Assembly (NCBI GenBank): GCA_973895155.1
Contig: OZ316891.1
Coordinates: forward strand, 1,975,324 to 2,039,323
DNA length: 64,000 bases
Reading direction: 5' to 3'
DNA from: Marsupella aquatica
Lineage: Eukaryota > Plantae > Marchantiophyta
The position numbers and the translations under genes are program-made. Numbering within the stretch: position 1 is the first letter of the stretch; every line of letters begins with the position of its first letter. The notes under the pieces were generated by a model. It was not told where the DNA came from and searched no databases. It was given only the letters and a program-made list of their open reading frames with translations. Of the stretch, positions 15,430-64,000 are shown in pieces.

Positions 15430-16074
15430 CACTACAACACTACCGACCCCTTTTGCGAACCCCGTCCCATCGCAACTAACAAAGGACCAAATTATGAAAT
15501 TCCGGCGTTTGCGAAACGCTACGCATCGCAACCCTTTCGCATTCTTTGAAACCCACAGCTTCGCAATCGGACTTTCGCAACCCCTTCGCAACACCTTCGC
15601 ACACTGCGAAACTTATTTTATCGCACATAAATCACATTTATGCGATCTCGACAGACTCTTTATCGGTTTGCGACGCGCTCTGAACTATAACTTATTTGCG
15701 AAGCTGTTTTCTTGACAATTCCGTTGCCATTCATATGGTATCGCATAACTGCGTCAGTCAGGGTGTCGCACAATTGCGGAACCAAAAGTATTGCAATATT
15801 CCAATACTCAATGTATGGCACGTTTGCGATAGTATGGCGTTCGCATGTGTTTTGCAAGGATAGTTTGAGGGCTGGGTTTTGTATATTTGGGTTCATAATT
15901 GGGTTGGGGTCTTATTGCTCCACATGAAGATACCAAAGCAAAACTTTATATATGCCAAAAATCCCTAAATGTACAAAAATTAGGGTTTTTGAAAACCCTA
16001 TGGGGTATCAAATACCAAGACACTGTCCTTTGACTAATCCATATGCCATATGGAGTGAACTACATCTGCATCCT

Positions 16075-18122
16075 CTAGAATGGAGCCCGCCTACTCCTCT
16101 TTGCTGGCCTCTTCCCCTTGTCCTTCTTGCTTTGGGCGGGACGAGCTGGACGGGAGGGGGTTGGTGGTGGTGGTGGTGGCGGTGGTGCCTACTGCTCCTC
16201 CCCATCTGGCTCATCCTCATCATCGTCATCATCCTCATCATCATCCTCCTGGTCTCTTGGTGTGCTAGGTGTGGCAGCACTCCCTGCCCCTCTGGACCCA
16301 CTCGTGGTGGCCCCGGTAGTGTCCCCATCATCAGCGCCGCTATCCTCCTCACTGCTATCCTCACTCCCCTCCTGCTCCTCCTTATCCTGCTTCCATGTCA
16401 CAAGGTTAATTTGGGTTTAGGGTTAATAGGAAAAATGTATAAACCTTATAAATGGAATGGGTGCGGGTTTAGAAAGGGTACTACAAATCACTCACACTAG
16501 CCAACTCTGCATCAACCAACTCAAAGAGATGTCTGGCCCCATGCTCTGCCCCTATCTCCATCTCCTTTGTTGTTATCTTGTGGTGGTACCTCTTATACTA
16601 CCACAAAAAAATGAAACACCAAAACATAAGGGGCCCGGGTTAGTAACTAAGGGTACTTAAGCAAAAAACGAATCCTAAAAAGGGTAAAAAGGGTACCCTA
16701 ACCAGAAAAAAACCCCATTACCCTAACAAACATTTGTCACTCGACACTAAACAGTTTTCAAAATGAAACAAGCTTTGCGAAACTCCCACCTTCGCAAATT
16801 CAAATATATTTAAGTTTGCGAAATAGACTGCGAATCGGATTGCTTCGCAATGGCTTCGCAAACCTTACGGGAAAAAGGTTATAATAGAGTTTGTGAAACA
16901 ATTGCGAGGCAACCCGCTTCGCAATTGTTTCGCAAACTGTGCTTTTAAAAAAATCCGAGAAATGGCTAAGGCACGCAATGTGTCAGGGTGACCTAAAACG
17001 AAAGTGGAGGCCATAAGGGGTAAAGCAGAGGTCTGCGAGGGGCATTGCAGGCAAGCAAACAACAATTGAAGGCGAAGGAAAAGAAGCAGGGGAGGAGGGG
17101 AGAGGACTTCAGGCCGGGAAGTCCACCTTGCCCCATCTTGTGTGTGGTCTTGGGGCGTTTGCTGACTCGGTCTGCTGCAAGGATGAACTTCTGGGGTGGT
17201 GTCCCCACTTCATCCACGATGTGCTGCAGCTGAGAGACCTTCTCAGCCAATGCCTTGAGGTCTTTGTCTGACTTCCCGGCCTGAAGTGCCTGGCCTCCTT
17301 CTCCTTCCAGAATTGGAGGTCCTTGGCTGCTTTCAGCTGCACCTCGACCTTATAGAACGCGTTCCACACATCCTCTATGAATTGCACTAGCCTCCTCACG
17401 TTCCTGTACTCCTGCAAGCTTGCCAGGTAGGCCCTCACCTTCCTCCTATCATGGTATCGTGCTTGAGACATTGAATTCGAAATTCTATCTGCAAGCCACT
17501 GGTCATCAATCTCTGCTCCATTTATGAATGAATCTTTGACCTAAGTCATTACTTTCCTCTGCTCTGCTCTGCTTAGTTTCCCCCACTCAACACCTCGTGC
17601 AAAGCTAGTCCTCACAGCAAGTCTGATAGTGCTCTTTGCCCCAGTGTAGGCCAACTCAGTAGGAATGCCCTCAACCAAGGCAATCAATGGCAGCTTCTTC
17701 CTCTCTTCCTCCTTTTTCCGCTGCGCCTCACGTTGTGCTCGAATCTCATCTCGTTCCTCCCTTCTCCTCTTCTTTTCGAGGGCTGCAGGAGAGAGTACTC
17801 CTGCCTTAGCCCTCTCCTCCTTCTTTCGTTTCTTCTCTCTGGCCTTCTCCTCAGCTACAGCCTTTGCCTCTTTCTCCCTCTGAGCCTGCCCTGCTGCAAC
17901 CCCGGTTTGCAAAGCTTGCCCTAGAATTGCACTCAAAGAAGCAATCCCAACTGGTGTACTCAAATCCAAATGGCTCAGCTGTGTGGCATTGAGATGCTCG
18001 GCCATCAAATTCGTCCATTGATTACTCTCCTCATTCCTGTTCCCTCCATTGCCATTGCCACTCCCACTCCCACTCCCACTTGCCCCTGCCCCATCCCCTC
18101 CACGCCCTCCACTAGAATCCAT
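16075..18122 (-). pseudogene. CACTA-1 TnpA/Ptta-like accessory gene (multi-exon; stops and a frameshift)
   Basis: ORF 18122-17541 reads through a TAG into FINGAEIDDQWLADRISNSMSQARYHDRRKVR and HKMGQGGLPG, homologous to the 54026-52833 ORF; small exon at about 16598-16497 (YKRYHHKITTKEMEIGAEHG); acidic/Pro-rich last exon. Confidence 0.65.
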
Positions 18123-18456
18123 AGCTATCCAACACCAAGCGCGCGCAAGCTCTCCTCCTGCCCTCCCTCACTTCAAAAAACGTCGAATGGGCCTCGTAAC
18201 CCGGCGGGAAGGTCCGAATGCCCAGACAAAACACATTTGCGACGCAGTCCGCATCGCAATTTGCGAATCAGCCCGCTTCCAAAACAAGAACCCCCCATAT
18301 TGAGAGATATGGACGTTACGGACGTCATACAATAGGGGCTTCCTCATCCCATGTGGTAAGTGTTTACGCCTTAGTTTCTACCCTATTTCCACATCGCAAT
18401 GGTGAAGGTTTTTAATTTCACACCTCTTGTTGTTTGTTTTGGTTTGGGTGGAATAG

Positions 18457-19272
18457 GTATCTAGTAGGCCTAGACCTGCGGCATCAGCACCTTATGTCCC
18501 ATCACAAGGTGTTCTAGATGCTATAGGCAATGCATTCTCACAAGCCTTGGGTCTAGCAACAGCCCCCTCCAGTCCTAGGGCAGTTGGGGGTGAGCCTGTT
18601 GTCCCAAGAGGGAGAAAGCGTTCCAAGAGACGGCCCCGAGGGGATACTGATTTGTACAAGGCAGTGGTTACCGATAGGTGGGGTGATTGTGAGTTTACTG
18701 GCAGATGTGTTCCTATCATCAATGACTGGGATCCCCAAACTCTTGGTTTGCCACAAGAGCTTTCCTATGGTGAGGAGGTAGAGGTTTGGGGAAGACGTTG
18801 GGTTATCAAACCTTCCACACTTGGGGATAGACATGGCTATGGAGTTTTTGCTTGTGAAGACATCATTGTGGATACCGAGAGTGGTAGTGGTGGACGCGGT
18901 CGAGAAGGACCTACGTTGTTTCCTTATGGTGGACCCATCTACAAGAGAAGACATTGGAACATGATCCTTGCACAACATCCTGAGTGGAAGACTTATGCCT
19001 TGGAGTTAGATACTTTTGATGGAAACACTAGGAGGTATAGTGAGCAGCGGGTGATAGATGGGGACCCCATACGAACTGGGAATATAGCTGGTTTCATAAA
19101 CAGTACTGTGGGGACTCGCCCCAAGCGTAGGCAAAATTCTGAGTGGGTTTTCATTGAGGGTCCTCCACCAGCCCCTTATGGCCAGACATATCATCATGAC
19201 CATTGTCTGGTTGTAGCTACTAGGACCATTCACTCAGGTGATGAGTTGTCTACTCACTATGTGTGGGATTAG
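18457..19272 (+). CDS. CACTA-1-encoded SET-domain protein (terminal exon nested in TnpD intron 1)
   Basis: HGYGVFACEDI (motif I), FPYGG (motif II), IDGDPIRTGNIAGFINST...QNSEW (motif III-like), VATRTIHSGDELSTHY (motif IV); phase-0 acceptor ...gaatag|GTA at 18456/18457; uninterrupted frame. Confidence 0.85.
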   Translation, partial: VSSRPRPAASAPYVPSQGVLDAIGNAFSQALGLATAPSSPRAVGGEPVVPRGRKRSKRRPRGDTDLYKAVVTDRWGDCEFTGRCVPIINDWDPQTLGLPQELSYGEEVEVWGRRWVIKPSTLGDRHGYGVFACEDIIVDTESGSGGRGREGPTLFPYGGPIYKRRHWNMILAQHPEWKTYALELDTFDGNTRRYSEQRVIDGDPIRTGNIAGFINSTVGTRPKRRQNSEWVFIEGPPPAPYGQTYHHDHCLVVATRTIHSGDELSTHYVWD

Positions 19273-19415
19273 AAAATGACCATACACATGGCGTTTGGCC
19301 ACATTTTGTATTTACACCAGTACCGATATTATTTCATGTTTGCACACCCCCATATATTCTTCTACATGTTGTAACTATTTGCTTTGTAACTTTCAATTGT
19401 TTGCATTGTTTTTAG

Positions 19416-22400
19416 AATGTGCGACCCTCTCAAAATATGTTATCGCGGAGATTGAGAGCAGCATATCGGGAAATGGGTATGCCGGAAGAAGGACAAGGCT
19501 CTGAGTCACATTCCTCATCAAGTGATAGTGGAAGCAACAACCCTGATCGCAATGTACCCAAAACATATGAACAGGTTATTGATGACCAAGATAGAGCCAT
19601 GGATGATTTTATGGTTGATTGGTTTGGTGTTGACGTCCCTGGTGATGATGCTGAGGTGTCTGCTGATCAAGGAGGTCATGTGCCCCCCAATGATCCACAA
19701 CCAAGACATACCCCCGAGGGACAGCGCCAATGGGAGGAAGCAGAGGAACATGCCCGAACTCCTATTTATGAGGGTGCTCGTTTGAGTCGTCTTTCTGCTA
19801 TCTTGGGGTTGATGAATCTACAGGCCAAACACAAGGCAAGCAATGCCTTGTTATCTGATATGTTTGCACTTTGCCATGACCTTATGTTACCTTCTGGCAA
19901 TGTGTTGCCAGGAACTTGGAAGGAGGCCAAGCATGTTCTCTCATCAATTGGCATGGAATATCATATCATTCATGCATGTGTGAATGATTGCATGTTATTT
20001 CATGGGGCCGATGAGAAGAAGACACAGTGTACTGAATGTCATGAGCCACGGTATGACCCCAACATGATTACAAAGAAGGTGCCAAGAAAAGTTGTTTGTT
20101 GGTTTCCCATCATTCCTCGATTGTTGCACATGTACAGGTGTTCTGATTTGGCAGAGTTGATGGTATGGCATAAGACTCATCGATCAGAGCCTGGTGTTAT
20201 GCGGTTGCCAATTGACTCTCCTGTAGTCAAACATATTGAGGAAACATGGCCAGACTTTGCACATGATCCTCGTCATGTGAGGTTGGGATTGGCATCTGAT
20301 GGGGTTAGTCCTCATGCCCTTGGAGGCAAGGGAAGACCTACATCAGTTTGGCCTGTGGTTGTGATGAATTACAACCTTCCACCATGGCTATCCATGAAGA
20401 AGGGGTTCCTCTTGTTGTCTTTGATTATTCCAGGTCCAAAAAAGGTGAAGAACTTTGACACTTATTTGGCACTATTGATTGGAGAACTCCAAAAACTGTG
20501 GGGTGGAGTGTGGGCATATGATGGCAAGAAAAATACAGGAGACATTCCACGTGTATTTAAATTGAGAGGGGTAGTTTGTTGGACAATGCATGACTATCCT
20601 GGTAAGATGACTTTTTGACCATATGCCACCCTTCTTTGATATGCTCTTTAATATACTTGTTTGTCATGTGACAACCCTAACATTTAGTCTGGTTTTATTT
20701 TTGGTGTAACCAGGGTTTGGCTTTGTCTCTGGATTGCAAACTCAGGGGTACAAAGCTTGCTCCACCTGTGGTCCACAATTGCAAGATATGGCAATTTGGT
20801 CCCCATGGCTTAGGAAGATTGTTTACATTGGGCATACAAAGTTTCTTCCGATGGGGCATGAGATGAGGTCTGACCCACTTTTATTTTCCTCCTTTGACAT
20901 GCCCCTTGGTGATATGCGGGAAATTCCGGAACCAACAACTTTTGGGCATTGGAAGTCACTAGCTGATAGGGTGGCAGACCCTGATGATCCCCTCACCTTT
21001 GATGGTACTGGGTTGACGAGGTGGAGTATACTAGCCAGTTTGCCCTATTGGTCAGAGTTGAAGATCCGCCATCTTTTAGACCCCATGCACATAGAGGGAA
21101 ATGTGGGGAAGGCGTTGATAGCTCATTTTTATGGGGAGAAGGACACTAACTTCAGGGAGGCATGTGAAGAGTTGGAAATGCATCCAGATGTATGGGTACA
21201 AGTTGATCCTGCCACAGGTTTGGAACATCGTCCTTCTGCTCCTTGGGTGCTTAGTGTTGGCCAAAGACGTGAATTCCGGAATCGTATAGGGGAGATGCGG
21301 TTTCCTACAGGCTATGGTGCCAATTTGAGGAAAGCTTTTGGGATGGAGGACAATCACAAATGGCCACGGTATCTCAAGACACATGACTATCACCGCTTAT
21401 TGCAGCATATATTGCCAGTGGCAATTATAGGGTTGGGGACCAAAGAAGTGCAAGATGCCATTTGGTCATTGGGTCGTTTGTTGAGATGGATATGCTCAAA
21501 GGAGATATATGTGGAAGAGATTCCTGGAATGGAGGTATTGGCTGCTGAGGTGGTTTGCAAGTTGGAGAAGGCCCTCCCTCCTTCCTTCTTTGATTGTCAG
21601 GTTCATTTACTTGTGCATCTTGTGAGGGAGGTTGCCATTGCTGGTCCAGTTCATTGTCGATGGATGTACTGGCTTGAGCGTTACATGTCAGTCTTGAAGG
21701 CTTATGTACGTAACCGTGCACGAGTGGAGGGAAGCATAGCTATAGGATACTTGGCTGCAGAGAGCATGTTTTATTGTAGTAACATCTTGGCCACCATTGA
21801 TCGGACTTTACCACGTACTTGGATGGAGGAGAGGCAAGAGGAGGACCGTTTAACAGGAGCAACAAAAACACGCATGCTTACATCAATAGAGTGGACACAG
21901 TTGAATACATTCATGTTGAGTAATAGCAATGTCATGGATGAATGGAGGGAGTTTTATGACAATGCCAAAAGAATGAGTCAAAGGGCAAGGATTTTTCCTA
22001 AGTTGCATGAGTTTATGAAGGAAAAGTTGGTTGAGTTGGATGGCATTTTGGCACAAGGAGGAGATGTCTCACAGTTTCCTACTATGACAAATGACATTCG
22101 GACCATTGTTCATGGCCCTTTGAGAGTGGTAACATCCAAGACGGCCATGTGGACCCAAGGGAGACACTTCAGGTTTCACTAGTTCCTAACCTTGTTTTCC
22201 ATATTCATGTACTACTACTTAAGATATAGTAATCATTTTACTTAAGATAAGTGTGTTTTTCTCTTTTGGTATGAAAGGTTCCTCATAACATGATTAGTGT
22301 TTTTTGTGTAGTAGTAATAATATATGGGTCTTGTTAATTTCAGGATTTCTTCCCTTGATGAGAAGAGGGCTCGTACTTTTGATTGTGGAGTTCAAGGGCA

Positions 22401-22830
22401 GTTTTGTCAGGACTCCCGGAGTAGCCGACATGACAGGAATATTGTTCGTGATGTTGTGCCACACTATGGGAAGATAGAGGAGATTTTGGTGGTCTTATAT
22501 GACAACCAATCTAAGTTTGAGGAGTATGTCTTCAAGTGCAAGTGGTTCAAAGTGAACCTTGTTGGTAATAATCGCACTGTACTCCAAGATGAGAGTGGGT
22601 TTACACGGTTGAGGACAAGTGCCACTAGTTTTCAAGCATCTCATTGGCAAACGTCAGAGCCATTTACTTTCCCATCTCACTTGGAGCAATGTTTCTACGT
22701 TCCATACCCCTTAGACCCAGAGTGGTCACTTGTCATCACATATGTGCCACGGTCTCGTTCCATTGTTTCAGACAAGCCAGACACTATTTTTGTGTCAGAT
22801 GTAGAGGACATTGAAGGTGACCAAGTGTGA
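19416..22830 (+). CDS. CACTA-1 TnpD-type transposase; exons 19416-20601, 20714-22172, 22344-22830 (plus an upstream exon ending at 18355)
   Basis: IHACVNDCMLF, RLGLASDGVSP, WPVVVMNYNLPPW, WTMHDYPG, LDPMHIEGNV, LKTHDYH, PPSFFDCQVHLLVHL, GPVHCRWMYWLER, YGKIEEI and FKCKWF; GT-AG introns join in frame with no stops. Confidence 0.95.
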
Positions 22831-23729
22831 GAGACACTTATGGATATTTAAACCAAAAATCTATATCATGGATTGTTCATGTTGTTTCTTAATTAATATT
22901 TCATACACCATTAGTGTGGTAGGTATTTTCATTTTGGACTCCTACTTCAAAAGAGGTCATGCATATAAGTGACATGGGTACTCCCTCCCTTATCCCTCCT
23001 CCCTCTTTGAACCCAAACTCTCCTTCCTCTTCCAAAAACTCCATAGCTTTTTCTCCTCCCTCCCTCTTCGCTAAAGTCTCTCCTATTTTTAGTAAACCCT
23101 CTTTGGACTCCCTTCTTCCTCCGTCCCTCATCCACCTTCCAACTCCCTTCCTCCCTCTTTCACCTTTCACCTCCCTCCCTCCTCCTCCCCCATTCAAACT
23201 CTAACCTAGATGCACACATAAGTCTAACATAAACGTTTGCGAACTGTTTGCGAAACTAAACAAATCCCAACCAAATCGCAATTCTGCCATTTAAATCGTT
23301 TCTCAATTATTCCATACTATACGCTTCACTATTTTGCGATATCCAGACCATCCCACCTTTACCATCCACATCGTTTCGCATATTTGCCATACAAACCCAT
23401 CGCAAATTGTTTGAAGCTAACCTTTTCGCAAACATCCTCCAATACTAATTGTTTCGCATCATTAATGTTACCGTGGTTTCGGACTTTCAGAGTGGTCACG
23501 GAGCCTTCGTTATGTGTTTTGTAATCTCTGTAGTTTCGCAAACTATTGTGATACAATAAAGTTCGCAAAATGTTTGCGATGCAAATCGCATGGAAGACCA
23601 AAGTTGCGATACCACAAGTATCGCAAATTGCGATGCGTATTGAGTCATCAACGGTTTGAAGCATCTGGAATCGCAAACGTGTGTCCGGACTCAAATGAGC
23701 TTCGCAAAAGGGCAAAATATGTTGTAGTG

Positions 23730-48250: not shown

Positions 48251-49584
48251 GTCGTCGGCATGAGTGTAGGGACCGCTCTGCTTCCATTAAGGAGTGGAAA
48301 GCAATACAGGCTGAAGGTCAAGGTCATAGGCTGGAGAGGTTGGGTTCGATTTTGAGCCCAACCAAGGTTCATGCTCAGTTTCCATGGCACCACGAATGAG
48401 AAGAATTCGGGTAGCAGAGGAAGAGAATCACTTCCGACATCGTGTCGATGCTGAAGGCAAGCATGTGTTTGTCTGCATAGCTGGTGATCACAAGCCTCGA
48501 TCATTTTCTTCCTTTGCTGGTTTCCAGACCCACATGGACGTCACACACAAGTTGGAGTTGCCACCTGCATTACTGGAGGCGGGCAAACCTTGGTTGTTCT
48601 CAAAATCCGACTTCTCCACTCGGATTGCCAAGAAACATAAGGCCCCTGGGCCAAATGTGAGGAAGGACAACAATCAGGCCTCTTGGAACCGGCTTCGATC
48701 CACTGTGCGACTTCGGTGGAGACAGACTAAGTTGCGGAAGAAGACAATGCTAAAGAAGAAGTATGGTGTTGCTGCAGATGAGCCGCTTGTTCCTGCAAAA
48801 TCGTTGCTTATTCGTGTCATCAAGGAAGTGCACATACGTGCAAGGCAGGCTAATGGTTGGTCATCCTTGTTGGATGACAGTGTGTACGAGATGTTGCAAG
48901 ACTCTGTGTCAGCTGCTGCAATTTCTCCTATTTTGTCTCGCTGGGTTGCTTCAATCCAAGCTTTGCCGGTACTCCTACCTAGAGATCGTAAGTTGCAGGC
49001 ACTTCAATTAGATTGTAGTGTCCTGCCATGCATTTTCCCCCGGGCAGATGTGGAGGTGCAACCTCCCGAGCTGATGCAGTTTGATACAATTCGAGAGGCT
49101 CTCATTGCAGATGCCTTGAATTACTTGACTCAAAAAAGAGCGCTTCTGTAGTGGAAGCATGGCCCCAAAGAAGTGGACTTTGATGCTGCATACCAAGATT
49201 ACAAGGAGTGGAAAGAAGAGCAAAAGCCTGTCAGCATAGCCACAGCCACTAACAATTTGCTACAGGAATACAAAGGTCAGGGCATGACCACTGAAGCTGC
49301 ACGAATAGAGGTATGACCTTTTTATTTTACTTCCTGCGATCTTTGCTTGTTGTTTGTACATTCCATTCTCATCTTGTCCCAACCATGTGCAGGCTGGACT
49401 AAATGAAGAGTGGGAGGACACTTCTGACGATAGTGACTATGAGCATGGGCCTGAGAAGTGGGGTCCGTTGCTAAATGATGCTGATCAACAGCCAGATGAG
49501 CCAGACGTTGTATCTGAACCTGTCCTCAATACTTCAGTTGAGGACCCGCCTCTTGTACAAGATCCTATTCAGGTTCCTTCTCAT

Positions 49585-49840
49585 GTTCAGGATGATGAAG
49601 ACAGTGATCATCAGAATCCTTCTCATGTTGAGGATGTTGACCATCTTATTGAGCATCCTGTTCATGATCCTATTCAGGATCCGATTGACCATCCTGTTCA
49701 GGATGATGAAGACAATAATCATCAGAATCCTTCTCATGTTGAGGATTTAGACCATCTTATTGAGCATCCTGTTCATGATCCTATTCAGGGTCCTATTGAC
49801 CATCCTGTTCAAGATCCCATTGACAATCCTATTCAGGATG
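49585..49840 (+). repeat. Coding tandem repeat, ~2 x 111 bp plus 12-bp subrepeats
   Basis: QDDED.HQNPSHVED.DHLIEHPVHDPIQ.PIDHPV appears twice. Confidence 0.85.
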
Positions 49841-51863
49841 TTTATGAACAAGGAATCAGCTTTTCACAACAACGTCACTTGGTTTCAAGCCTCCAAAATA
49901 TTCTTTACGCCTATGGAGAGGGAGAGGACGACTACCCCCTCCAGGTCAGTCTTTGTTTCTTTGCTTCAATTACTTTTGGAATTTCTTTGCAAATTGTGAA
50001 TACATGAGCCTCATCGTATTCGGATGCTCCTTGTGTTCATTGCAGGAAGGAGTAGTATCGGAGACTATCTCGGAGTTCGTAGCACCACCAACCCCTACAC
50101 CTGAGACTCTACTCCCAAACTTCATAGCGCCAGTCGCAGCAACAGCACCAGCCCCTGTATCGTGTATATTAGTCTCGGAGTCCTTACCACCACTTGCACC
50201 AGCACCACCAGCCATTGCACCACAGATTGTACTATTAGAGTCGGTACCAGTAGCAGCAGCACGACCACCACCAACAGCCCCTACACCACAGATTGTAAGT
50301 CTCTAAAGTGCAAACTTGGAAGTCATTCAATTGCAATCTAGTCTGAATACTTAAACCCCAATGTCTTTTCACTCCCCTAAGCATTCATTTCATATATTGT
50401 AGGGACAAAGACGAAGGGGAAGGGGTGTACCACTGGAGTCCCCATCCCCAGTACAGAAAGCAGCACCATCCCCTCCAATGTCAACAAACCCCTTCCAGGT
50501 TTGCCTTTGTGTTTTTTGTAAAAACATATGTTTGCAATGCTTTGCAATGTCTGAATACAGCTGCCTCATTGTCTTCGCCGTGCACTGCAATTTCTTCATT
50601 CTAGAGACGGAGCGGAAGGACAAGTGGAGGGGTCGTAGCAGTGGAATCACCAGCACCAGCCCTCGCACCATGGATTGTAAGTCTCAGAAGTGCTTACTTG
50701 GAATTCGTGCAATTGCAATGTAGTCTAAATACTTCAACCCCAATGTCTTTTCACTCCCAGGTTTGCCTTTGTGTTTTCGGTAAAAACATTTGTTTCCAAT
50801 GCTTTGCAATGTCTGACTACATCTGCCTCATTGTCTTTGGTGTGCACTGCAATGTCTTCATTCTAGAGACGAAGTGGAAGGGCTCCTGGAGGGGTTGTAG
50901 CAGTGGAATCACCAGCACCAGCCCTCGCACCACAGATTGTAAGTCTCAAAAGCGCTTACTTGGAAGTTTGAATACATCACCCTAATTGTCTTCTGCGTGC
51001 ACTACAATTTCTTCATTCTAGCCCATGCACGGGAAAGAAATTTGATATAGGTCAGCCTGGTTTGCCTTCCTGTACAAGGCCACATTCCTTTCTATTCATA
51101 TTACTTTGCAGGGGTCACAACTACATTTTGACTCAACTTACCGTTGCCTCACAACAGGCTAATCTCGACGTATGAAACTCTAAATGGAAACACGGAATCC
51201 CCAAGGTAAAATTGGCAACATTCTGGACGTCTATATTGACGTGGTTTCTTACGTCGTCTCACACAACGCACATTGCCACACCGCCAACGTGGTTCTTTGT
51301 GTGCACGACATCCTATGCATCGTTAGAGTACTGGGCTAATGTAGATTTCCATGTCCATTGAACGTCGCACGGAGTGACGTTAATACAAACAAAACGTCGT
51401 GATTGACGACGTTGACTCCCTCGTATAAGACAACGTCAGTGTTTGTAACGATGTCTGGGACACCGTTCCGTTTGATGTAATGTGAATTCGTTCATTGGTT
51501 TACGTGGTGTGATAAGACGTTGTTATCATATATCGATGTCATGAACGACGTTGTGTGAAAGTGGAAGACTACGTCTGGGTCATACCTTGTGAGATGCTTG
51601 GTAACTTTATGAATGAACGACGCCCCGTATATTATGTCGGACCCTGCCATACAACCTTATTGGAGGTTATAAACACACTTAAGCTAGGGTTACAATGGGG
51701 TGAGCATTATTTGGGTAGGCAGTTGGGGTTTAGGGATACACATTCAATATGCATATGGTATAGACGTTGTAATCCGCGAAAAGTGTCGTATTGGATAATA
51801 TTGTTATGGGCCAAATATGTACAAAATGGAGGATGAAGTCGGGCAAGTAAAATAGGCTATACC

Positions 51864-54026
51864 CTAGTCACGCTCAGTCCGCCTGGTATCACGTCCAGAC
51901 CTGCGTGTAGAAGTGGGTTGTACGCCTCTCGGGCGCAACTCGTACCTGGAGTCATCCTCCTCTAAGCTAGTGGTACTGGGGGACAACGTATCTGCCTGTG
52001 TTGCAGCCCTATGAGTAGTCACTGGCCTACTCCCCTTACTGTGTGGAGGTCGCCTAGTGTCATCCCTCCTCCTCTCCCTCTCCCTCCCCCTCTGTCTATC
52101 TGACCTATCTCTCCCTATCTCCCTCTCTCTCCCTCCCTTGGCTCTCTCTCTCTCCCTCCGGCCTTGGCCACTAGTACGCCCCCCATGAGTCTCTGCCTCC
52201 TCCTGCCCGCAATCTACGTGAGCCTCCTCCTGCAAACCCTCCTCGGGCGGTACCCTGGCTGGCAAGTGATCCTCAGGGATGGCCCGTGCAACCAAGCCCT
52301 CCGGAGGAGTCCAATCCTCCACCTGCATGATAGCATTCTGGTCAGTTAATGTCACAGAGTAGGCCTAAAGTCAACTACAACCTAGCAATCACTTTAGCTC
52401 TTACCCGGTGATCCTCCGGGACTGAGGCCAACTTGGCCCATAGCGCTGCCGGGCCATACCGTTTCGAGTACAGCCGCTCCTCCTCCGACGGCTCGGCATC
52501 GACACCAAACTTGCGTTTCTGCGAGAAAGCAAAAGAACGTCGTTCCTAAGCACGTATTCAACCCTCTCAGCATCGGTGCTAACGTCGTTCCATGCGTTGC
52601 ATATCTAGTTAACGTCGCTCTAACGACGTTTTCACTAAAGCGGTACATGTAACGTCTCAAGGACGACGTTCTTCCTAAGGTACGTCTCAGATGAAGTTAC
52701 AAATCAAAGTTAACGTTGTTATGGACAACGTTATGAATGAATCAGGCGACGTAATTTCAAAATCTCGACGTTACACTATGGTTTACACCGGAGCAACGAA
52801 ATGAAAATGTGGAAGTTGGGTCCGAGACTTACGTAGGTTGCAAGGAACCCTCGCCATCCTCCTTGCCCCCAGAAATTGGTTACTAGAAGGCGTCCGCTAT
52901 TCTTTCGAGCTGCAGTGGCTTTGTCACCCATGTGCACTCGTTTTCCTACTGGGGTGTCTGGGGGTGCTTCAAGTTCAGACACGATCAAGTTGAAGTCCGA
53001 CTTGGCCATCCCTTCAGGCTTACGGTACTGCCCTGTCTTCTCGCATTTCATTGCTCGGACCTTGCTTCTCCACCTGAATCTTCTATCAGCAAGGAAACTC
53101 ACAATCTTCTGCCTGATGTGTCGAAAATCAATCTCTCTGCCATTCTTGAATCCGGCTTGTATGTCATTGAGGAGTACTTGAAACTTCTTTGTATTGTGCA
53201 CGAGGTCCTTCCAAGTCGTCCACCCAGGGCAGTGTTTCGTACAGCAGACCTGCACTCGATTCGTTAGCGCCTTCTCATCAAGCACCTCTGGCTTCGCATC
53301 AAAAGCAGCCAGGCTGATGACCGGCAGTTGTTCTTTGCTGGCAGGAGTAGCAACGGTTCGGTGAGGAGAAGCTCGCCGATGACCTCCTCCGATTGAATGT
53401 GAATGTCGATGTGACCTTCGACCTCTCCTATCTCTGTCCACCCTCAAATCTCGTTCAGCCCTTTTTCTCTTGTGTGTGCTGCGGCTGTCTCTTTCTCTGC
53501 GCTCCTTTCCCTTCCCCTTTTTTTGTCTCCTCTCAATGCTACTATTGCTACTCAAAGAACGGGAACGACGTCGCCTTCTGTGTGTCCGCAACTCTGTACT
53601 TGAATCATCAGGCTCATATCTCTGAATCCTCACTTGGCTCTTGATGGGAGTAACACAAGGTGGTTGTGAATCCGGCTCCATCCCAGAGAATGAGGGATAG
53701 TCCCAGACTGAGTCCATCAAGGGCGGGAAGGAAGCAAGAGGATCAAGTGATGCCCCCGGAAGGTCGCGCAAGAACTCTGGTGCTTGAATGTCGGGCTCAA
53801 CGTTGGATGCTGGAGCGTTCTTTTCTATGTTCTGAAGGTATTCCAAAAATCGTGACTCCTTCATCCCAGTTCCTCCCATGAATTGCCAACTCTGATTGAA
53901 AGCATCAATCAGTGAATGTGCTGACCGCAAAGCTGTTCGAACCTTCTCCACCTCCTCTGGGTCTTCCATGGAAACTTTCACAGCATCAAAGTTGATACTG
54001 AGGGGCAGATAAGCTGGACGTGACAT
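51864..54026 (-). CDS. CACTA-2 TnpA/Ptta-like accessory protein; exons 54026-52833, 52518-52405, ~52322-51864
   Basis: WKDL...FKNGREIDFRHIRQKIVSFLADRRFRWRSKVR...KPEGM...NFWGQGGWRGF is homologous to the CACTA-1 minus-strand gene; phase-0 GT-AG introns. Confidence 0.7.
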
Positions 54027-54544
54027 TGAGGCGAGACTTGGAGCAAATGTAGATGACCTTCACAAAGATTAGAGCTTCACTAGAGCTTCACTAGAGCCAC
54101 GAACAGAACAAAACACTAGATGTGGGGTGAGGTGTGTGCGGAATGGTCGAATGACTCACATTCGACACTATGCCCCGGTATTTTCCGAATAGAATGCGGC
54201 AGAGTTCGCAACAATGTGTTTCCGCCGTTCTCTGTCTATTTACGTTGTTTTTCACGACGATGCCCTAATTGATCGATTAGTAATACGTTGTGCTAGACGA
54301 CGTTTTCATTTAAACGTTGTTCTGTACATCGTTAAAAGGTAGGGTTTACTGTAACGTCGTGTGGGGTACGGTACATGACGTAGGGTTTAAGAAATACGTC
54401 GTGTATTGTGTTCTCGGCGACGTAAAGTGAAAGTACTTTGTTTTACTTGACGTAAATATTGTGGTACTATAGTGGTCCCGACATTCCATTTCCAAGGCTG
54501 AGTTTGCAAGTTTGCGTGTATATGTGTGTGTACTATTGCAGGCC

Positions 54545-57500
54545 ATGGCCTCGTGCTCATCGGAGTGGTCATCTGATGATCGCTATGATGGAGGTGCACA
54601 TCACCGAGACAGGTACCGCTCTCATGATAGGGGGAGGGAGAGGAGGAGGGAGCACTCACCTGCGAGGTCGAGATACCACTCAGTCGAGAGGAGGAGGGAC
54701 TTATCATCTGATAGGAGCAGGCACCATTCGTCTGAGAGGAGTTGGGATCAGTCTTCAGATAGGGAGTACCGATCTAGGGATCATCGACATCGGGAGCGAC
54801 GAAGGCATAGGAGGTCCCATCGATAGTCCCACCGCCACCGCCGGTCCAGGTCTCCCTCTGATGACCACACACCCCGACACCGATCACCCATGCCGGAGGA
54901 TGAGGATAGGTTTGGAGAGGCCATGGCTGCCCTTCAGGGGATTGGCCCAGTCCGAAAGATGCCCTGCCCATGTAGTAGATGCAAGGGCGTCGTCTCCCAC
55001 GAGAGGACCACTGTCCTTAGCCATTTAGGCCTCCACGGCCGTTACGTACCCCCGACACATCAGGTAATTCATAAACCTTTATTGACACTATTCAATTCAT
55101 TAAGTCCTTATTTTTGAATATAACATGTTTGGGTTTCTTGAGTTTCTTGAGTGTTTAGTTGGAATGGTTTTTTCCCTGATTTCTGAAGTTCTCTTGTTCA
55201 CATGTGAAACAGATTTTGTGTGTGGTCTCTCCGCCCTTGGACCACATGAGACAGGTTGCACGTCGCGCGCTCACAGCACTAGTTCCCCCATCAGCACTCG
55301 ATGCCACGTTAAGGGCAATAGACCGTGTTTTTGATAGGAGGAGGAGGGTCATTCGGAGTCACCCTATTGAGAGGGGAGTAGAGGTCACCACTAGACCTCG
55401 GTCCATTACGTCTCGTACCCCTAGGACGGTGCCGCCACACTGTCCTTTTCTTGATGCCTCTTTTTCCCGAGCACCAAGAGAGTTAAGAGGGAGAGCCTTG
55501 GACATCATAAAGGACTCATTCCCAACCCAGTTTGGCCTCCCTATGGTCCTGCTTGTTCGGGAGCCTATTGTAGTTTGGGATAGGCCATGGGTCCTCCTCC
55601 CATCCACATTGGGAGACGACGTAGGTCTTGGATTATTTGCACTTGTGGATATTGTGGTGCCGGAAGGTTGTGCACCTGAGGACCTGCCCGAGTTGATTCC
55701 ATTTTATGGGCCAAAGTATTCGGCCCATAGATGGCGTATCTTGTCTCGCCAATGCCCAACCTTTGGTCGGTATGGCATGTCACTAAAGTTGGACCCTAGG
55801 TATACTCAGATGGATGGTTACTCCCCTCGTACTGGAAACTTGGCGGGTTACATCAATAGCACAGTGGGGTGTCGGCGTTTGGGGTTCCGCCCCAACGCTG
55901 AGTGGCATGAGTACCATGACCAGAGTCACCCTCGTTTGCCCTTGGGATGCAGTCACTACATCCTGACACATGCCACCCACACCATTCGAGCAGGGGATGA
56001 GATATTTGTAGACTATGATTGGCATTGAAGATTATATATGTTATTGATCACTTATTCATTACTCAGAGTGAGACTTATATTGGATTCTTTGACCTTCATT
56101 ACCTCATGCACTATTGGGAACACATTGTCTAATTTGGGGATGACCTTATCTAATATTGACGTCTTGCATAGGATGGTCCAAATATAACACCTACACCTCA
56201 TCCATCGATGATGACGGAGTCAGCCCATTCGTTCCACATGCGAGCCACATTATCTTTTTCTGACGACGAAGATGTTGAGAGTGATCATGTGCATGAGGAC
56301 GAGGATGTGGACGAGGATGTGAATGAGTACCATGATGCACATGATGACGATTTTGATGAAGATGTAGAGGATGATATGGATGCACCTATTCTTGAAGAGG
56401 ATGCTTTTGCGCACCTTGTGGACATCCACTTTGGACCTCATGTACCTGAGGGTGACCCTCCTGTCATGGAACTAGACAAAGATGATTGGGACCAATTGGA
56501 AACTGAATCCAGGACTCCGCTATTCCAGGGTTCCCCGACCTCACGGTACATTTCTCTGAGGTGCTATTATAGTTTTTCTACTGTAATGTTGCTTAAGGGT
56601 GTGCATAAACCCTAAGTCCCCAATTGGACCATCCTCAATGGCATGCCTTAAACTAATTAAAAAGCTGGTTTCTTTGTGGTTTTCAATGCAAATGCAGGTT
56701 GGGAGCCACACTCTTGATGTTGAATTTACAGGGGGTTTTCAATGGATCAGATGTCCATACAGATGCACTCTTTGCGTTGTTCCACAACAAACTCTTGCCT
56801 CAACCTAACAACCTTCCAGGAAGTGTGAGGGAGGCTAAGAAGTTGTTATCATCTATCGGACTGGCGTTAGAGACTATACATATGTGCCCTCATGGGTGCA
56901 TCTTGTATAGAGGACCGTACTTGGACCTCACCCATTGCCCAATTGAGCGATGTGGCCTTCCACGGTATCGTCCTGATACCATTGGAGACAAGATTGCTGA
57001 GAAGGTAATGACGTCCTCTCTGTACCACATCTGTATTTTAGTAATTTTTTACGTACTTTACGGCATTTTGTGTCCCTTAACGTTGCCCTCGTGAGTAGTA
57101 CGTCTTTCAACTAGAAGTAAATAACCCTAACGTCTCCCTTGTGATTTTTACGTCTTTCCATACGATGTTTTTTAGTCCAACGTCGATTTTTGCAACGTAA
57201 AAGTTTAGAGAACGTAGATCTGCTCAACATGAAACTATAACGTCGTTCTGGACAATGTTCACTTTTAGGATACGTAGTTATGTTCAATACAGAAGTAATA
57301 CGTCGTATTGAACATTGTAAAGATTTTTGGAACGTAGTTATCGTCAACGTATTTGTGATGTTAACGACGAAATGCCGCCTCATGGTTGTTGTACATTTCA
57401 GGTACTGAGGTATTTTCCAATCACACCCCGATTGCAGCATCTATACCGGCGAAGACACCTATCCTCCCTACAGACTTGGCATGCCGAGACCAAATCCCCA

Positions 57501-60462
57501 GCAGGGATAATGCGGTATCACCAAGATAGTCCAGCATGGAAGCACATTGATGCCACATGGCCAGATTTTGCTGCAGAGCCACGGAACGTTCGGTTGGGGT
57601 TGGCCATAGATGGGGTAAACCCATACAAGCAGCGACGGAAACCAAAGTCCATTTGGCCAGTTCTTTTGATAAATCAGAACATCCCTCCATGGTTGGCGAT
57701 GAAAAAAGGTCATGTTCTCCTCCTAGCTATCATTCCCGGTCCCGAGGCTTGCAAGAATCCAGATGTTTGCTTGGCCCCAGCTTATGAAGAGCTACATGAC
57801 TTGTGGGAAATTGGGGCTCCAACAACAGATGTCACCCGTGCACCGGACAATGGGAGGACATTCAACATGAGAGTCATGATCACCCATTGCACCACTGATG
57901 GGCCCGGTAATTCAAAAACCTTACAAAATGTGATTATATTGTGCTAAATGACTTTATGTCTTCATTTGGCTTCTTTTATTGTGGGAATATGATGGGGTTT
58001 CCTTGGCAGGCATGGGCACAATATCAGGCTTGAAGGTGGCTGGGTACTCAGGTTGCCCTTCATGTGGCCCTGAGTTGCATGGGAGGTACTCAGTACTATT
58101 GCACAAAACCACATATGAGGGCTGCAGGATGAGATTGTCAATGGATGACCCCATGCGATGTAACACAAGACATTGGGCACAGACTGAGTTAAGACCATGT
58201 CCTAATGCGCCTTCAGCAGAAGCTCAAATTCAAATGGCAGAGATGGTGGAGGCTAAGCTGCTGAAACCCAAAGATTGTGGAGTAAACCGACGCTCAGCAT
58301 TGTGGGACTTGCCTTATTGGAGGGTAGGTACAATACACCTATCAAATGTTGTGTATAGATTTTTTCATCAACTCTCATAATGCTAGAGTTTTTCACTTGA
58401 TTACCATGTTGTGCAAGCAGATGCTCAAGATCCGGTGGCTACTGGACCCCATGCACATTGAAGTGAATGTCGCAAAGAATTTGGTGAAGCACATGTATGG
58501 TGAGAATGATACTCGTGGAGTTCGTGTGGATGCAAAGAATGTAGGAGTTGTGAAGAGCTGTTGGATATCAGGTACATGATAAAACATCGATCAACCCTTA
58601 ATTTGTAAGAAGTTGCCCGGATTTGCCTGAAACCCCAAACCCTAACAAGTTGATTATCTTTAATTATTGGACAGCACGTACTGGGGTGACACCACCAGCC
58701 CCTTGGATTTTGCCTCGAGACATTCTGAAGGATGTGAATGGGATGATTTGTGAGATGAAGTTCCCGAGCCATTACGGAGCTGGATTCCGTGGGTGCACAA
58801 CGAGGAATGAGTACATCCCCCCGATAGGGTTGAAGTCCCACGATTATCACAAGTTGATACAGCATGTGCTCCCTGCAGTGTTGCGTTGTTGCGATGATTC
58901 TAGAGAGCGCCACCTACTCCGACTCACAGTGTACGAGTTGTGCTCCATTTTCAGGTTGGAAATATCTTACTCGTGGATTTTGTGGTGTTATGGGACCATA
59001 AATTTATGGTGTCTCAAACGACATTCTAGAGAGGATACGTAGTCTCTTAATACTTTACGTCATCTATAACTAGGTAACGTAAAAATACGACTCCACATAC
59101 GACGTATTCAAGGTCGTATAAGTCACCCCTCTTCAGGAACGTCCTGCAGAGCGACGTTTGTAGGAATCTTAGTAGAGGGAATGTTAGTAGGCATTGAATT
59201 GGTAACCATCTTAGCCCACTTTCAGATTGGGCGGTGATATTTATTCCTGTCATGTTTTTGAGTGCCTCATAGGTGGGTATGTGCCAAGGAGATCAAGGAG
59301 TCAGAGATTCCTTTGATGAGGGAGAGGACGGCGCAAGTGATGTGAAATTTGGAGCGAGTGTTCCCCCCAGCACTGTTTGACATGCAAATGCATTTGCTAT
59401 GTCACCTGGTGGATGAAGTTGCCATTGCAGGCCCAGTCCATGCCCGATGGATGTATTGGGTTGAGCGATATATGAAGGTGCTCAAGGGTTGGGTGCGTCA
59501 ACCCGCTCGACCTGAGGGAAGTATGGCAACAGGGTTCATTATGTCAGAGTGTCTTTTCTATTCCGGGGGGGTGATAGGGAGTTTGGATAGCAAAGCTCCC
59601 ACAACTTGGGAAGAGGCACAAGATGATGACAATGGTGGGCTGCGATTGATGGGTGCGGCCAAGAAGCGATCATTGGATGATGACATCTTTCGTCGACAGA
59701 TCCATAATTATGTGTTGGGGAATCGACCGGAGATGTCTGATTGGAGGGAGATGTATAGGTATGGTACTCTAAAATTTTAATCGATTGTGAATTGGATTTG
59801 AGAAGGCTACAAATCTCTAACAATCTTGTGACAACGTATTTGGCAGTGCATGGTTGGAGCTTCAAGTGGGAGTTGCGCAAGCAGGTCGTGGCATTGCATC
59901 ATTTCGTGTCTGGGCTTTGGAGCGCATGGAGAGGCTCTTGGCTGTGCATGGGTCTACATCCATTCCCATTGATGTACAAAACATCATTAGAGGGCCAGGG
60001 ATGCGGGCCACGACTCATACACACATGTATGAGTCAGGGCATCACTTTCGGACTTGGAGGACAGACCATATGAAGAAGAGTACTTGTAACTCTGGAATCT
60101 TCATGATGACTGATGTAGATGATGTAGAGGTTCCTTATTGTGGGACAGTTGTGGACATTTTAGATGTTCATTTTGGGTCATTTGTCACCACTGTACTAGA
60201 GGTGAGGTGGCACAAGTCGATCATGTCACCCCCAGCGAGAGCTACGATGGTTGCGGATGAGTGTGGTTTTTATCGCGTGGACACAACCCGAGTTGCACCC
60301 ACAGGGACTGAGTTTAGTGAGACCATAGTTTTTCCTAGCCAGGTGGATTAGTGCATTATGGTTCCGATGCAGACCATGAGAGGATGGTCCATTGTCATAC
60401 CAATTTTCCCTCGGCGAAGGAAGGGCTTCATGGCATCTGTCCTTGCAGACGATGCGGACTGA
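54545..60462 (+). pseudogene. CACTA-2 TnpD transposase; exon 1 54545-55063, then 56172-56545, 56698-57004, 57402-57906, 58010-58323, 58421-58571, 58675-58954, 59273-59758, 59847-60462; stops at 54824, 59343 and 60349
   Basis: Exon 1 has an RS-rich tract and CPCSRCK...VLSHLGLHG (transposase-associated Zn motif); IHMCPHGCILY, RLGLAIDGVNP, LDPMHIEVNV, LKSHDYH, FDMQMHLLCHL, GPVHARWMYWVER and YCGTVVDI; splice phases are consistent. Confidence 0.92.
55255..56028 (+). CDS. CACTA-2-encoded SET-domain protein (terminal exon nested in TnpD intron 1)
   Basis: STLGDDVGLGLFALVDI, IPFYG, MDGYSPRTGNLAGYINSTVG...PNAEW, HATHTIRAGDEIFVDY; phase-0 acceptors at 55254/55255 (or 55212/55213); uninterrupted frame. 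Confidence 0.85.
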   Translation, partial: VARRALTALVPPSALDATLRAIDRVFDRRRRVIRSHPIERGVEVTTRPRSITSRTPRTVPPHCPFLDASFSRAPRELRGRALDIIKDSFPTQFGLPMVLLVREPIVVWDRPWVLLPSTLGDDVGLGLFALVDIVVPEGCAPEDLPELIPFYGPKYSAHRWRILSRQCPTFGRYGMSLKLDPRYTQMDGYSPRTGNLAGYINSTVGCRRLGFRPNAEWHEYHDQSHPRLPLGCSHYILTHATHTIRAGDEIFVDYDWH

Positions 60463-61098
60463 CACTATCCTTCACACCCTCCATTTATATGTATTGGCTA
60501 TGCCCACCTTCCACATATATATTGACATATGTTTCGACGTTTGAGATCTGGCAAACTGGAGGGAGAGTTGTGCAAAGTTTCTTCTTTCCTCACTTTATAG
60601 CTAAGAACACATTAAAAAGCATTAAACCTCGGCCTTCGAACAACCTTCAATGGGTCCTAGCACGTAAACCCTTATCACGTAGGCCAATTGACACTTCGAA
60701 CTTATTAACGTCAACTTCAACGTCATTAGACAATCAAAGGTCCCTTATACCCATAATGAAGACGTTAATCTATAGTTACGTCGTAGATACGTTGTACAAA
60801 CGACGTATACATAGTACGTCCTTGGTTTACCTCGTAGTAGACGACATAGATTGTGTTACCGTGTCTTAAACGACGTAAACGTTTATTTAACCATTCTTCT
60901 GATGACGTTCAAAGTTTCAATCGACGTTACTCACAAAACACATTACAAATATAAATTGCCTGGGAGGGACTTTTTATTCATGCGCTCAAAAACATACAAC
61001 GTGCACATAAGGCATGAGTCTGACTCCAGTCTAAACTGATTCCAATCCTAGGCAAATGATGCTCCTCCGTCTCCAGCTGACCTTGGCACTAGTGTAGC

Positions 61099-61659
61099 TT
61101 AAGGGGTCCCTTCACCAGACCAGTAGTACTCCTCATCTGCCTTCCTCTTTTTGTACGAATCATGCCTATTGCTGGCGTTCCATTTCTTGCGGACCACTGC
61201 TTCACCAACCTTCAGCCTTTCAGCCTCAATCTCAGCTGCACAGCTTTCCTTGTAGTCATACATCACAATATCAAGTTTAGTCGGTGACAACTGACATTTA
61301 GCCAACTTTGGTGGACAAGCCTCACCATCATCATCCTTGGGCGTATCGTCCAGCATCAAATCGTCCCCTGGATGCAGCAAAAACTCTTCTGGGTCCAACT
61401 CCTTATTGCCCAGAATGGAGTACTGTACCCAACAAATCGAGATGAAATGCACGGACTCTGCAAAGTGCTCGATCAATCCAGGATAGTCACTGAAGTGCTC
61501 TGTGACTTGTTTCCAGGTATTGGCAAGCAAGTATTCCGTCTTTGAGTTACAAAACTTGTCTATCACACCTCCACGACAAAAAAAGCCACGAACAGTCTTG
61601 TCTTCTTCACCTAGCGGAAGAAAACAACAGTGGACATCCTTGAATATCTTACGTACCAT
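61099..61659 (-). CDS. CACTA-2-borne single BRCT-domain protein (186 aa)
   Basis: ATG at 61659; IFKDVHCCF...RGGVIDKFCNSKTEYLLA...HFISICWVQYSILGNKELDPEEFLL fits the BRCT pattern (F-x-G/D, GG turn, T-x-LI, W-V-x-x-S-I, terminal aromatic). Confidence 0.7.
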   Translation of the reverse strand: MVRKIFKDVHCCFLPLGEEDKTVRGFFCRGGVIDKFCNSKTEYLLANTWKQVTEHFSDYPGLIEHFAESVHFISICWVQYSILGNKELDPEEFLLHPGDDLMLDDTPKDDDGEACPPKLAKCQLSPTKLDIVMYDYKESCAAEIEAERLKVGEAVVRKKWNASNRHDSYKKRKADEEYYWSGEGTP

Positions 61660-63664
61660 AGCTAAAGACTTTCAATCTCACTCTGCAAATTCTGTGCACT
61701 ATCGTACCCGTAGGACATCTGAAATCACGAATGACCTGTGCAGTGAGGTCCCAGTAGCCTTGCCCCAAAAACTCCCGCAAAAAACCTTACGCATGCCAAT
61801 TGGATTCCATTAACGTCGTTTCCCACATTGGTCATATACGTCTAACATCGCCCAACATCCATTATACGTCGTCATAGCATAGTATCCGTTATAGCCACGT
61901 CAAAAACGACGTACATCTATACGTCGACCCAACCCTATTCTGCTACACCGTCTGGGACGACGTCTACATGTTTGCCTCGTTATAAAAGACGTAAATAGCC
62001 CTATTGGGAGATACGTTAAATTAAAGACCCTCTAGACGACGTAAAATGGGAAGGAAAGTCAAATGGGTAAACCCATTTTGGGTTACGACGTAGAGGGAGA
62101 TGTACTGGGGAGTAACGTCGTGTCACATGACGCGAAAGGAAGTCACGACGTAGTGAAATGTAGTTGTGGGTTAAATACACAACCCTCGGTGTATTCAAGT
62201 CACTTAATGATATTCTCCATTGTAGAGAGGAAGTAAAAGGGGAAGGGGTGTATCAGCGGTGCCCCCAAAACCAGTAGCAGCACCAGCACCGACAAGCAAC
62301 CCCTCCCAGGTATGTCTTGATGTACCAGGCTAATTTCCTTATCAAACTGCTTTGCAGGGAGTGAATACACAACCCTCACTGTCTTCTATGTCAATTAATA
62401 ATTTTGTTCATTGTAGGGAGGAAGACAAAGGGGAAGGGATGTGTCAGCAATGTCCTCAGCACCAGTGGCACTAGCAATCCCAGTACCAGCTACCAACCCC
62501 TCCAAGGTACGCCTTTGTGTCTTAGGCCACATAATTGAATTCCTTCTCATCAGCGGCGTCCAATTGTTGAGTAATGTGAATACCTCTTTGTCAATGTATT
62601 TTGATGTTGCTTTGGATTGTAGGAAGGGCAACAACGGGAAAAGGCAAGCAAAAGGCGAAAAGGAAAGGGAAATTTGGTGGAGCAATCCCTTGCACCTGCC
62701 CCAACCCCTATCCCAACAAATGAACACTCAGCCCCTGTCCCTGTAACAACACCAACACATGCACCTGCCGGTATCCCTGGACCACCACTAGCACATGCCC
62801 CTACACCAGGACCAGCAGAAGCACCAGCCCCTATACCAGTGCCAACACCAGGCCCTGCACCGGCTACGAACTCCTCACAGGTGCAGCAGCAAAATTCCTC
62901 TGCTTCATTGTGGAATGTGAATACCTCTTTGTCCATGTATTCTAATGTCTTTGTGGGTTGTAGGTACCACAAGGAGGAGCTGCTTTGTCCTTAGTACCTG
63001 TTCTTGTCTCAAGGAAGAGGAAGGAGGCCTCTAAATCAAGCAAGGGTATGAGCCAGGCATTGCAAGTTGTTCCTCTATTGGCAGTCAACCCCAAAACAAA
63101 AGTTGTGTTTTTGCACCCCGAAGATGATGACTTAGCAACATCAGAAGTTGAAGACAGAGTGAGAGGCAAGCCAAAGCGAAGTAAAATTGCGACAAGTAGA
63201 GGGGGGGCAAGGGAGAGGAAGAGGAGCACAGTCTTCTACTCAACCAACTCCCTTGCATGAAATCCAGCTAGATGATGGTGACAATGTAGACACATTTGGG
63301 CCATCACAACTTTTGCATGACTCCCAAATGACTGCTTCACAAGATACATTCAGGGAGGTTATTGACCAACTCCCGCACCCTTCCCAGTATGCTGACTGAG
63401 CGTGGACACCCTTCCCGTGTGGTACTAAGCCATTTTTGTGGTAGCTTCAATGGTCTTTAGATGCAATGTAGCTTGAGGTAGCTTCAAATACAATGTAGCT
63501 TCATTGGAAGGCAAGGAGGCCCATGATACATCTACACTGCAAGGTCACAACTCGACTTGCAACTTGTACTGGAAACATTTATGAATAAAAAGCAAGTTGC
63601 ATTCACTGTGTTCTGATGTATAAAAGTTATTCATTCTGCTGGATACTACCTTCAGTTTGCACCT

Positions 63665-64000
63665 TCAGTTTTGGAAGACATTGTCCACATTGTCGACAGG
63701 ATATTTCGCTTGAAGAAGCCATTTGAGCAGGGGTAAATGACCGTGGATGTTGTGGGTTTTGGAAGACATTGTCCATATAGTCTTCGCACCACACTTAGCC
63801 ATTTTTCCAATGATAGGATATTTTGCTTGAAGAAGCCATTTGAGCAGGGGTAAATGGTGGATGTTGTGAGTTTTGGAAGACATTGTCCATATAGTCTTCG
63901 CACCACACTTAGCCATTTTTCCAACGACAGGATATTTTGCTTGAAGAAGCCATTTGAGCAGGGGTAAATGGTGGATGTTGTGAGTTTTGGAAGACATTGT
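63665..64000. repeat. Tandem repeat of a 114-bp unit, continuing past the window end
   Basis: ggaagacattgt at 63673, 63761, 63875 and 63989 (114-bp period; first unit truncated). Confidence 0.92.

Follow-up and report, generated by a model that had tools for sequence, protein, structure and literature searches.

Two EnSpm/CACTA elements in the window

The window, that is, the whole stretch of 64,000 nucleotides of Marsupella aquatica DNA that was analyzed, carries two DNA transposons, element 1 and element 2, whose features are the following (all positions are those of the window).

Element 1
15430..23729, CACTA transposon of 8,300 bp, terminal inverted repeat (TIR) CACTACAACA, target duplication TTT
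17109..18167, minus strand, head-to-head accessory gene with a single in-frame stop at 17541
18296..18355, plus strand, remnant of exon 1 that retains the His part of the Zn motif, with its phase-0 donor at 18356
18457..19272, plus strand, SET exon, first Met at residue 169, within the domain
19416..22830, plus strand, TnpD exons 2-4, 1,043 stop-free codons after removal of two introns

Element 2
51116..62168, EnSpm/CACTA transposon of 11,053 bp, 13-nt TIR starting CACAA, 3-bp target duplication GGT
51864..54059, minus strand, head-to-head accessory gene (frames 52776-54059 and 51864-52364)
54545..55063, plus strand, exon 1 of 519 nt, ATG at 54545, RS-rich tract, C3H Zn motif at 54965-55024, phase-0 GT donor at 55064
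55064..55212, plus strand, putative short intron (149 nt) between exon 1 and the SET acceptor, GT...CAG, 69% AT
55213..56028, plus strand, SET exon of 271 aa plus stop (at 56028): helix, disordered linker and SET fold
56029..56171, plus strand, gap of 143 nt from the SET stop to the TnpD acceptor, 66% AT, AG before 56172
56172..60462, plus strand, TnpD exons 2 onward with Transposase_21 and DUF4218, several introns, stops in this copy
61099..61671, minus strand, 190-aa frame near the 3' end, no Pfam match

Both elements are members of the EnSpm/CACTA superfamily. Their short TIRs have the 5'-CAC...GTG-3' termini that define the superfamily in the accessible text of PMC12730594, and each is flanked by a 3-bp target duplication. 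The strict CACTA pentamer is found in element 1 and not in element 2; a CACTA end, considered as a candidate for the latter, is not present, its true ends being CACAA. The TnpD domain set (Transpos_assoc, Transposase_21, DUF4218 and DUF4216) is present, with DUF4216 scored only in element 1 and Transpos_assoc remaining under the curated cut-off. In addition, each element has its own subterminal-type 7-mer, ACGACGT in element 2 (27 copies within, none in the rest of the window) and a different one in element 1 (23 copies within, 4 elsewhere in the window), many copies of both being internal and not only subterminal.

Element 1 interrupts a Copia element (11191-25418, 5-bp duplication CATTG) with 344-nt LTRs that are 98.3% identical, and therefore it moved recently. 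For element 2, the empty site, with 51111 joined to 62168, was found in contigs of three out of four public runs. The copy of element 2 is damaged: its exon 1 is interrupted by an in-frame TAG at 54824, and near 59345 and 60349 its TnpD contains stops at positions where three runs carry a different letter. In element 1, the 5' part of exon 1 is deleted in this window, together with the ATG and three Cys. The ATG and these Cys are present in sister copies, whose contigs are near-identical from 18296 and have about 1 kb of different sequence upstream, the last 30 letters of which code for VSQKSYICAQ, a motif also present in Calypogeia and Sphagnum gene models. The head-to-head genes of the two elements are weakly related (HMM E 0.002, the sole match among 378 proteins), and no credible family match was obtained for them in Pfam or Atlas; a TnpA-like role is something that we only infer.

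Around element 2, a larger repeat-rich unit (46200-51115 and 62169-64000) contains tandem repeats and multi-exon, proline-rich frames (48330-49151, 49309-50007 and 62623-62994). A 273-aa frame of this unit has no Pfam match, and the unit is possibly another transposon. The single long intron-less frames at 26343-28088 and 34121-35506 are presumably host genes, resembling RFT1 and homogentisate solanesyltransferase, and we take the gene at 5353-9486 (minus strand) to be CSB/ERCC6-like.

A SET exon within the first transposase intron

The two elements share one layout on the plus strand: an exon 1 with the Zn motif, a phase-0 GT, a short intron, a SET frame with its stop, a gap and a phase-0 TnpD acceptor. 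In element 2, position 55064 is also the start of TnpD intron 1 (1,108 nt). The original prediction had located exon 1, the donor at 55064, the SET stop at 56028 and the TnpD acceptor at 56172, and all of these positions hold. The RS-rich tract and the CPCxxC...HL..G motif that it had read in exon 1 are both present, the latter corresponding to Pfam Transpos_assoc (E 1.8e-4, under the curated cut-off). An AG precedes both 55213 and 55255, but a SET acceptor at 55255 is less likely than one at 55213, given that 55064-55212 has 69% AT and 55213-55254 only 48%. A relative, L002 (L-numbers denote the 60 loci obtained by a metagenome scan with the SET family, P-numbers database proteins), has an exon 1-SET intron of 144 nt versus 149 nt in element 2, which also favors 55213.

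As predicted, the SET proteins of the two elements can be aligned (39% identity over 195 aa, E 9e-34, BLAST). The pre-SET segment that they were said to share, though, lies outside this alignment and is in each protein a predicted helix, not a Cys-rich pre-SET domain. The divergence of the DNA was borne out, since only three stretches are shared, at 66-70%, all in the TnpD core, and the TnpD intron sets do differ, yet the two have in common a phase-1 intron that follows the PG motif. The gap between SET stop and TnpD acceptor indeed measures 143 nt in both elements, but the equality, used as an argument for a module, is a coincidence, because the gap is 136-147 nt in 23 Sphagnum-type loci (the L010 value is off by a codon), 189 nt in L002 and about 111-513 nt across divergent families. 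The stretch 56029-56171 is presumed to hold the 3' end of the SET transcript; an AATAAA, looked for in it, is absent.

Distribution of the layout

Searches retrieved 41 relatives of the element 1 SET and 9 of the element 2 SET, and a profile of the family matched 102 representatives with a threshold of E 1e-10 and 167 with one of 1e-3. For 20 of the 150 relatives listed the host was looked up, and among these hosts are Riccia sorocarpa (6), Calypogeia fissa (2), Adiantum nelumboides (2) and Ginkgo biloba (1), with Calypogeia as the closest named match (74%). Sphagnum species were found in searches beyond those 20, and hundreds of Sphagnum database proteins named 'SET domain-containing' (one cluster has 360 members) are explained as transposon products. 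The 148 pattern matches among viral contigs included none related to the SET family.

Within the metagenome loci, the Zn exon was detected in 23 of the 29 having at least 900 nt upstream and TnpD in 14 of the 21 having at least 1,200 nt downstream, 12 loci carrying both, with detection profiles that derive in part from these same loci. The cases in which the Zn exon (6/29) or a nearby TnpD (7/21) is missing were counted against the shared-module model. The loci concerned are the Sphagnum-type L026, L028, L046, L051 and L052 and the low-GC, divergent L040, L054, L055, L059 and L060. In the wider SET tree, full-layout loci occur in each main branch, L030 standing beside the Ginkgo protein and the L025 group beside the Adiantum proteins, the Ginkgo and Adiantum members being represented in it by their protein sequences.

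Several other arrangements were observed. At L053:402-2065, a Zn exon and a SET exon lie 135 nt downstream of a TnpD C-terminus, an order unlike that of the window, which was likewise counted against the model; the pair could be a SET gene of two exons that has become independent, or else a tandem copy. At L059:3569-5576, a NIF-phosphatase frame (Pfam E 1e-15) lies upstream of a family SET that is close to those of Adiantum; a Zn exon was not detected there, and this SET may be carried by another element type. A low-GC SET subgroup (L037, L039, L040, L041, L047, L054, L055 and L060) showed no Zn exon or TnpD nearby, and several of its members are broken. Two divergent family SETs come from Calypogeia: P0138, in which repeated Cys/His knuckles replace the Transpos_assoc motif, and P0157, which has no terminal Tyr.

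SET fold and predicted activity

The element 2 SET scores narrowly under the Pfam SET cut-off (E 3e-4). Its structural model (pLDDT 79) has Foldseek matches to solved SET domains, and the two SET models match such domains with a probability of 1.00. These matches are equally distant (MLL1, SETD8, ATXR5, NSD and LegAS4, at 14-23% identity), and the family profile run against solved chains gave none below E 0.28. No closeness to one host SET class (Su(var)3-9, E(z), Trx, Ash1, ATXR5, SETD8) or to its flanking domains was found when comparing by profile and by fold. PHROGs and NCBIfam searches returned nothing informative, with a weak LegAS4 SET match far under the cut-off, and the Atlas neighbors from phages and haptophytes (0.92 and 0.89), taken as leads, gained no support from these searches. 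Pfam assigns SET alone to the family proteins, with no N6-adenine methylase domain. In the model of the Sphagnum product, a small Zn module, predicted with confidence, is followed by a long linker and then by a helix and the SET core.

The G-x-G, Asn, Glu and terminal Tyr are invariant in 27 aligned family members, and the terminal Tyr occurs in 67 of 89 rough pattern matches. The canonical R-x-x-N-H (ARFINHS in MLL1) reads G-x-x-N-S in 74 of 97 matched proteins and N-H in none of the 97. The proteins end directly after the terminal Tyr, without a post-SET Cys cluster. Since the residues of the pocket are retained even where identity is down to about 25%, we lean, by a small degree, towards a product that would be active as a lysine methyltransferase; the altered R-x-x-N-H, the missing post-SET Cys and the lack of a nearest host class weigh against a firm call on activity or substrate. 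The family-wide loss of the Arg and His from the cofactor-binding motif would also suit a Zn-SET isoform that is made but inactive as a methyltransferase, serving as a histone-tail binder, or as a decoy or brake that diverts transcripts or partners from TnpD, the more so as a proximal acceptor followed by a stop would alone reduce TnpD output. We consider this unlikely, since the invariant G-x-G, Asn, Glu and terminal Tyr exceed the needs of a splice brake and since PRDM9 is active without the His.

Proposed splicing model and alternatives

In nine divergent loci, exon 1 ends in a phase-0 GT in all nine and the open SET frame starts right at a TAG acceptor in eight, with introns of 76-117 nt (76-149 nt when the window elements are included). 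The first Met of the SET exon, the position of which varies between close relatives, comes only at residue 169 in element 1, 80 in L031 and 81 in L034. In P0102, the Zn motif and the SET lie in one unbroken frame on a 2,141-nt Logan contig, which may be an intron-less genomic copy. The SET isoform carrying the Zn motif, as originally predicted, is well supported by gene anatomy and also by this single frame, while the splice itself we infer. Read contigs at both elements have no intron skipping and look genomic, hence they say nothing about expression, and the NCBI gene models used are predictions.

Ordinary TnpD proteins have the Zn motif as their N-terminal domain; therefore, TnpD needs exon 1. 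As the TnpD exon of element 2 begins at a bare acceptor, a TnpD mRNA would have to skip the SET exon. The exon 1 donor would accordingly have two partners: spliced to the near acceptor it would give a Zn-SET protein, and spliced to the far one, TnpD. Judging from the sequence features, it is likely that splicing makes this choice and that a transcript ends in the SET-TnpD gap. The Zn-SET protein would be a predicted lysine methyltransferase, likely acting on the chromatin of the element itself. Targeting to the element by the Zn motif, as originally suggested, would be one possibility: the 40-residue C3H module may bind DNA, or it may act as a tether, with TnpD or the head-to-head gene product as its partner. 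The latter product would be as good a candidate as the Zn module for the sequence-specific binder, each element having its own 7-mers. By analogy to VANC, TnpA and PAG2 (see below), our best guess is that the protein places a histone mark on its own element, and a histone substrate at the element with an anti-silencing effect is put forward only tentatively.

A different arrangement would be a separate nested gene, in which the SET has its own promoter and start codon and exon 1 serves TnpD only. The early Met at residue 12 of the SET exon in element 2 and its close relatives, and at residue 4 in the Sphagnum family, counts in this direction and against a need for exon 1. It is an improbable arrangement, even more so than an inactive isoform, given that element 1, Calypogeia P0001, L031 and L034 have no usable Met, that all families retain a phase-0 acceptor, that a promoter would hardly fit into introns of 76-149 nt, and that P0102 is one Zn and SET frame. 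Alternatively, a donor inside the SET exon could lead to a single Zn-SET-TnpD fusion protein, SETMAR-like, as suggested by five Riccia and Sphagnum gene models that join SET parts to TnpD (P0028, P0144, P0158, P0174 and P0257). However, these models exit the SET exon at varied points, four out of five ahead of the terminal Tyr, and every intact SET frame examined has a stop right after that Tyr, so we reject the fusion as very improbable.

Co-inheritance and selection

The original prediction had proposed comparing the SET and TnpD phylogenies for congruence. The comparison covered 16 elements in which SET and TnpD are both present (12 loci or window elements plus four Riccia models, some SETs being partial), omitting three Sphagnum-type loci and one model that were near duplicates or too short. 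The two trees have 12 of 13 splits in common, whereas none of 10,000 label shuffles gave more than 4 shared splits, and the single conflicting split has 37% support; deep splits of the SET tree are weakly supported (37-58). Pairwise identities of SET and TnpD also correlate (Mantel rho 0.67, p 0.0002, 13 families). Between families, dN/dS is 0.17-0.40 for the SET exon in nine correctable pairs, four further pairs being saturated, and 0.13-0.29 for TnpD. Near-identical Sphagnum-type copies give SET values of 0.8-1.3 in three pairs; a fourth pair, which differs by very few changes, gives 0.58. The pattern is one of selection on active lineages and decay after insertion. That the SET exon is a neutral passenger of one gene capture, for which the values near 1 in near-identical copies could speak, is the least probable explanation and is contradicted by the 0.17-0.40 between families, by SET frames that remain open at 23-39% identity, and by near-1 values being ordinary post-insertion decay.

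Element 1 (18457-20603 for the stretch compared) and the Sphagnum-type L004 and L005 are close, with a SET dS of 0.8-0.95 and TnpD 77% identical, and the same family is found in Calypogeia; because this is low for a moss-liverwort split, horizontal transfer between bryophytes is possible. Thirty hand-picked angiosperm-type TnpDs (23 named, of 118) form one clade separate from 13 SET-linked TnpDs (aLRT 99), in a tree without an outgroup that fits loss in angiosperms and gain in one lineage alike. The SET profile matched 2 of 120 long TnpD proteins, both from Riccia, in a scan that covered proteins and not introns.

The claim of an old, selectively kept module, as opposed to a one-off capture, is upheld by the congruent SET and TnpD trees, by purifying selection and by recurrence across families and named hosts. 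Taken as a whole, it is rather probable that an old land-plant EnSpm/CACTA lineage keeps a SET exon in transposase intron 1, co-inherited and under selection, and likely expressed via the shared exon 1 as a predicted lysine methyltransferase that likely acts on its own chromatin. A wider scenario is speculative and, in our view, doubtful: early land-plant CACTAs would have had a splice switch between the transposase and their own chromatin writer, marking element nucleosomes against silencing, and flowering-plant CACTAs would have lost the exon. If true, a plant transposon would encode a histone methyltransferase of its own, and the SET family would be a new one. Many families, including one that moved recently, retain the module, and their lineages comprise tractable liverworts and mosses; therefore, a self-written chromatin state would be directly testable.

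Comparison with known systems

SET and transposase sequences are found in one gene in SETMAR/Metnase, a single domesticated host fusion in primates; unlike it, the module of the window is mobile, occurs in multiple families and has a SET exon that closes with a stop. SET-bearing transposons are already known, whereas a SET exon nested in a transposase intron is apparently undescribed: in titles and abstracts, we found no published SET exon nested in a land-plant CACTA transposase (TnpD) intron, although Repbase Reports, subscription journals and preprint supplements may hold one.

Among the closest cases is the accessory gene PAG2 of red-algal Plavaka, of the EnSpm lineage, which, according to the accessible text of bioRxiv 10.1101/2025.02.11.637652, has a SET domain and is proposed to be a chromatin modulator. 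Like PAG2, the SET described here is carried long-term by an element of the EnSpm superfamily. As far as described there, however, PAG2 is a separate gene with the SET fused to an N6-adenine methylase, while here an exon without a methylase lies inside TnpD intron 1, so that the two are set apart by layout, SET homology aside. HarbingerS and MuDR of Phytophthora and some Helitrons are also DNA transposons encoding SET (as cited in PMC12730594 and the Bostrychia preprint); they belong to other superfamilies and hosts and, in the parts of these sources at hand, are described as accessory genes without a shared first exon of the transposase.

Regarding the production of two proteins, maize En/Spm and Arabidopsis ENSPM3/7 make TnpA and TnpD from one alternatively spliced gene, and TnpA has sequence-specific anti-silencing activity, as stated in the accessible portions of PMC13547354 and bioRxiv 10.64898/2026.08.24.746577, the main texts of which have no occurrence of "SET domain". 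Similarly, one unit would give the transposase and a second protein here, as suggested by gene anatomy, but the second product described in those portions is a helix-turn-helix DNA binder, and here it has a SET fold. The VANC anti-silencing proteins of VANDAL elements, as presented in the partial sources consulted, are another example of element-encoded control of its own silencing; they belong to the Mutator superfamily, are encoded by a separate gene without a SET fold, and thus share only the role proposed here. If the SET is active, it would be an element-encoded writer, in contrast with the known plant anti-silencing factors VANC and TnpA, which are DNA binders.
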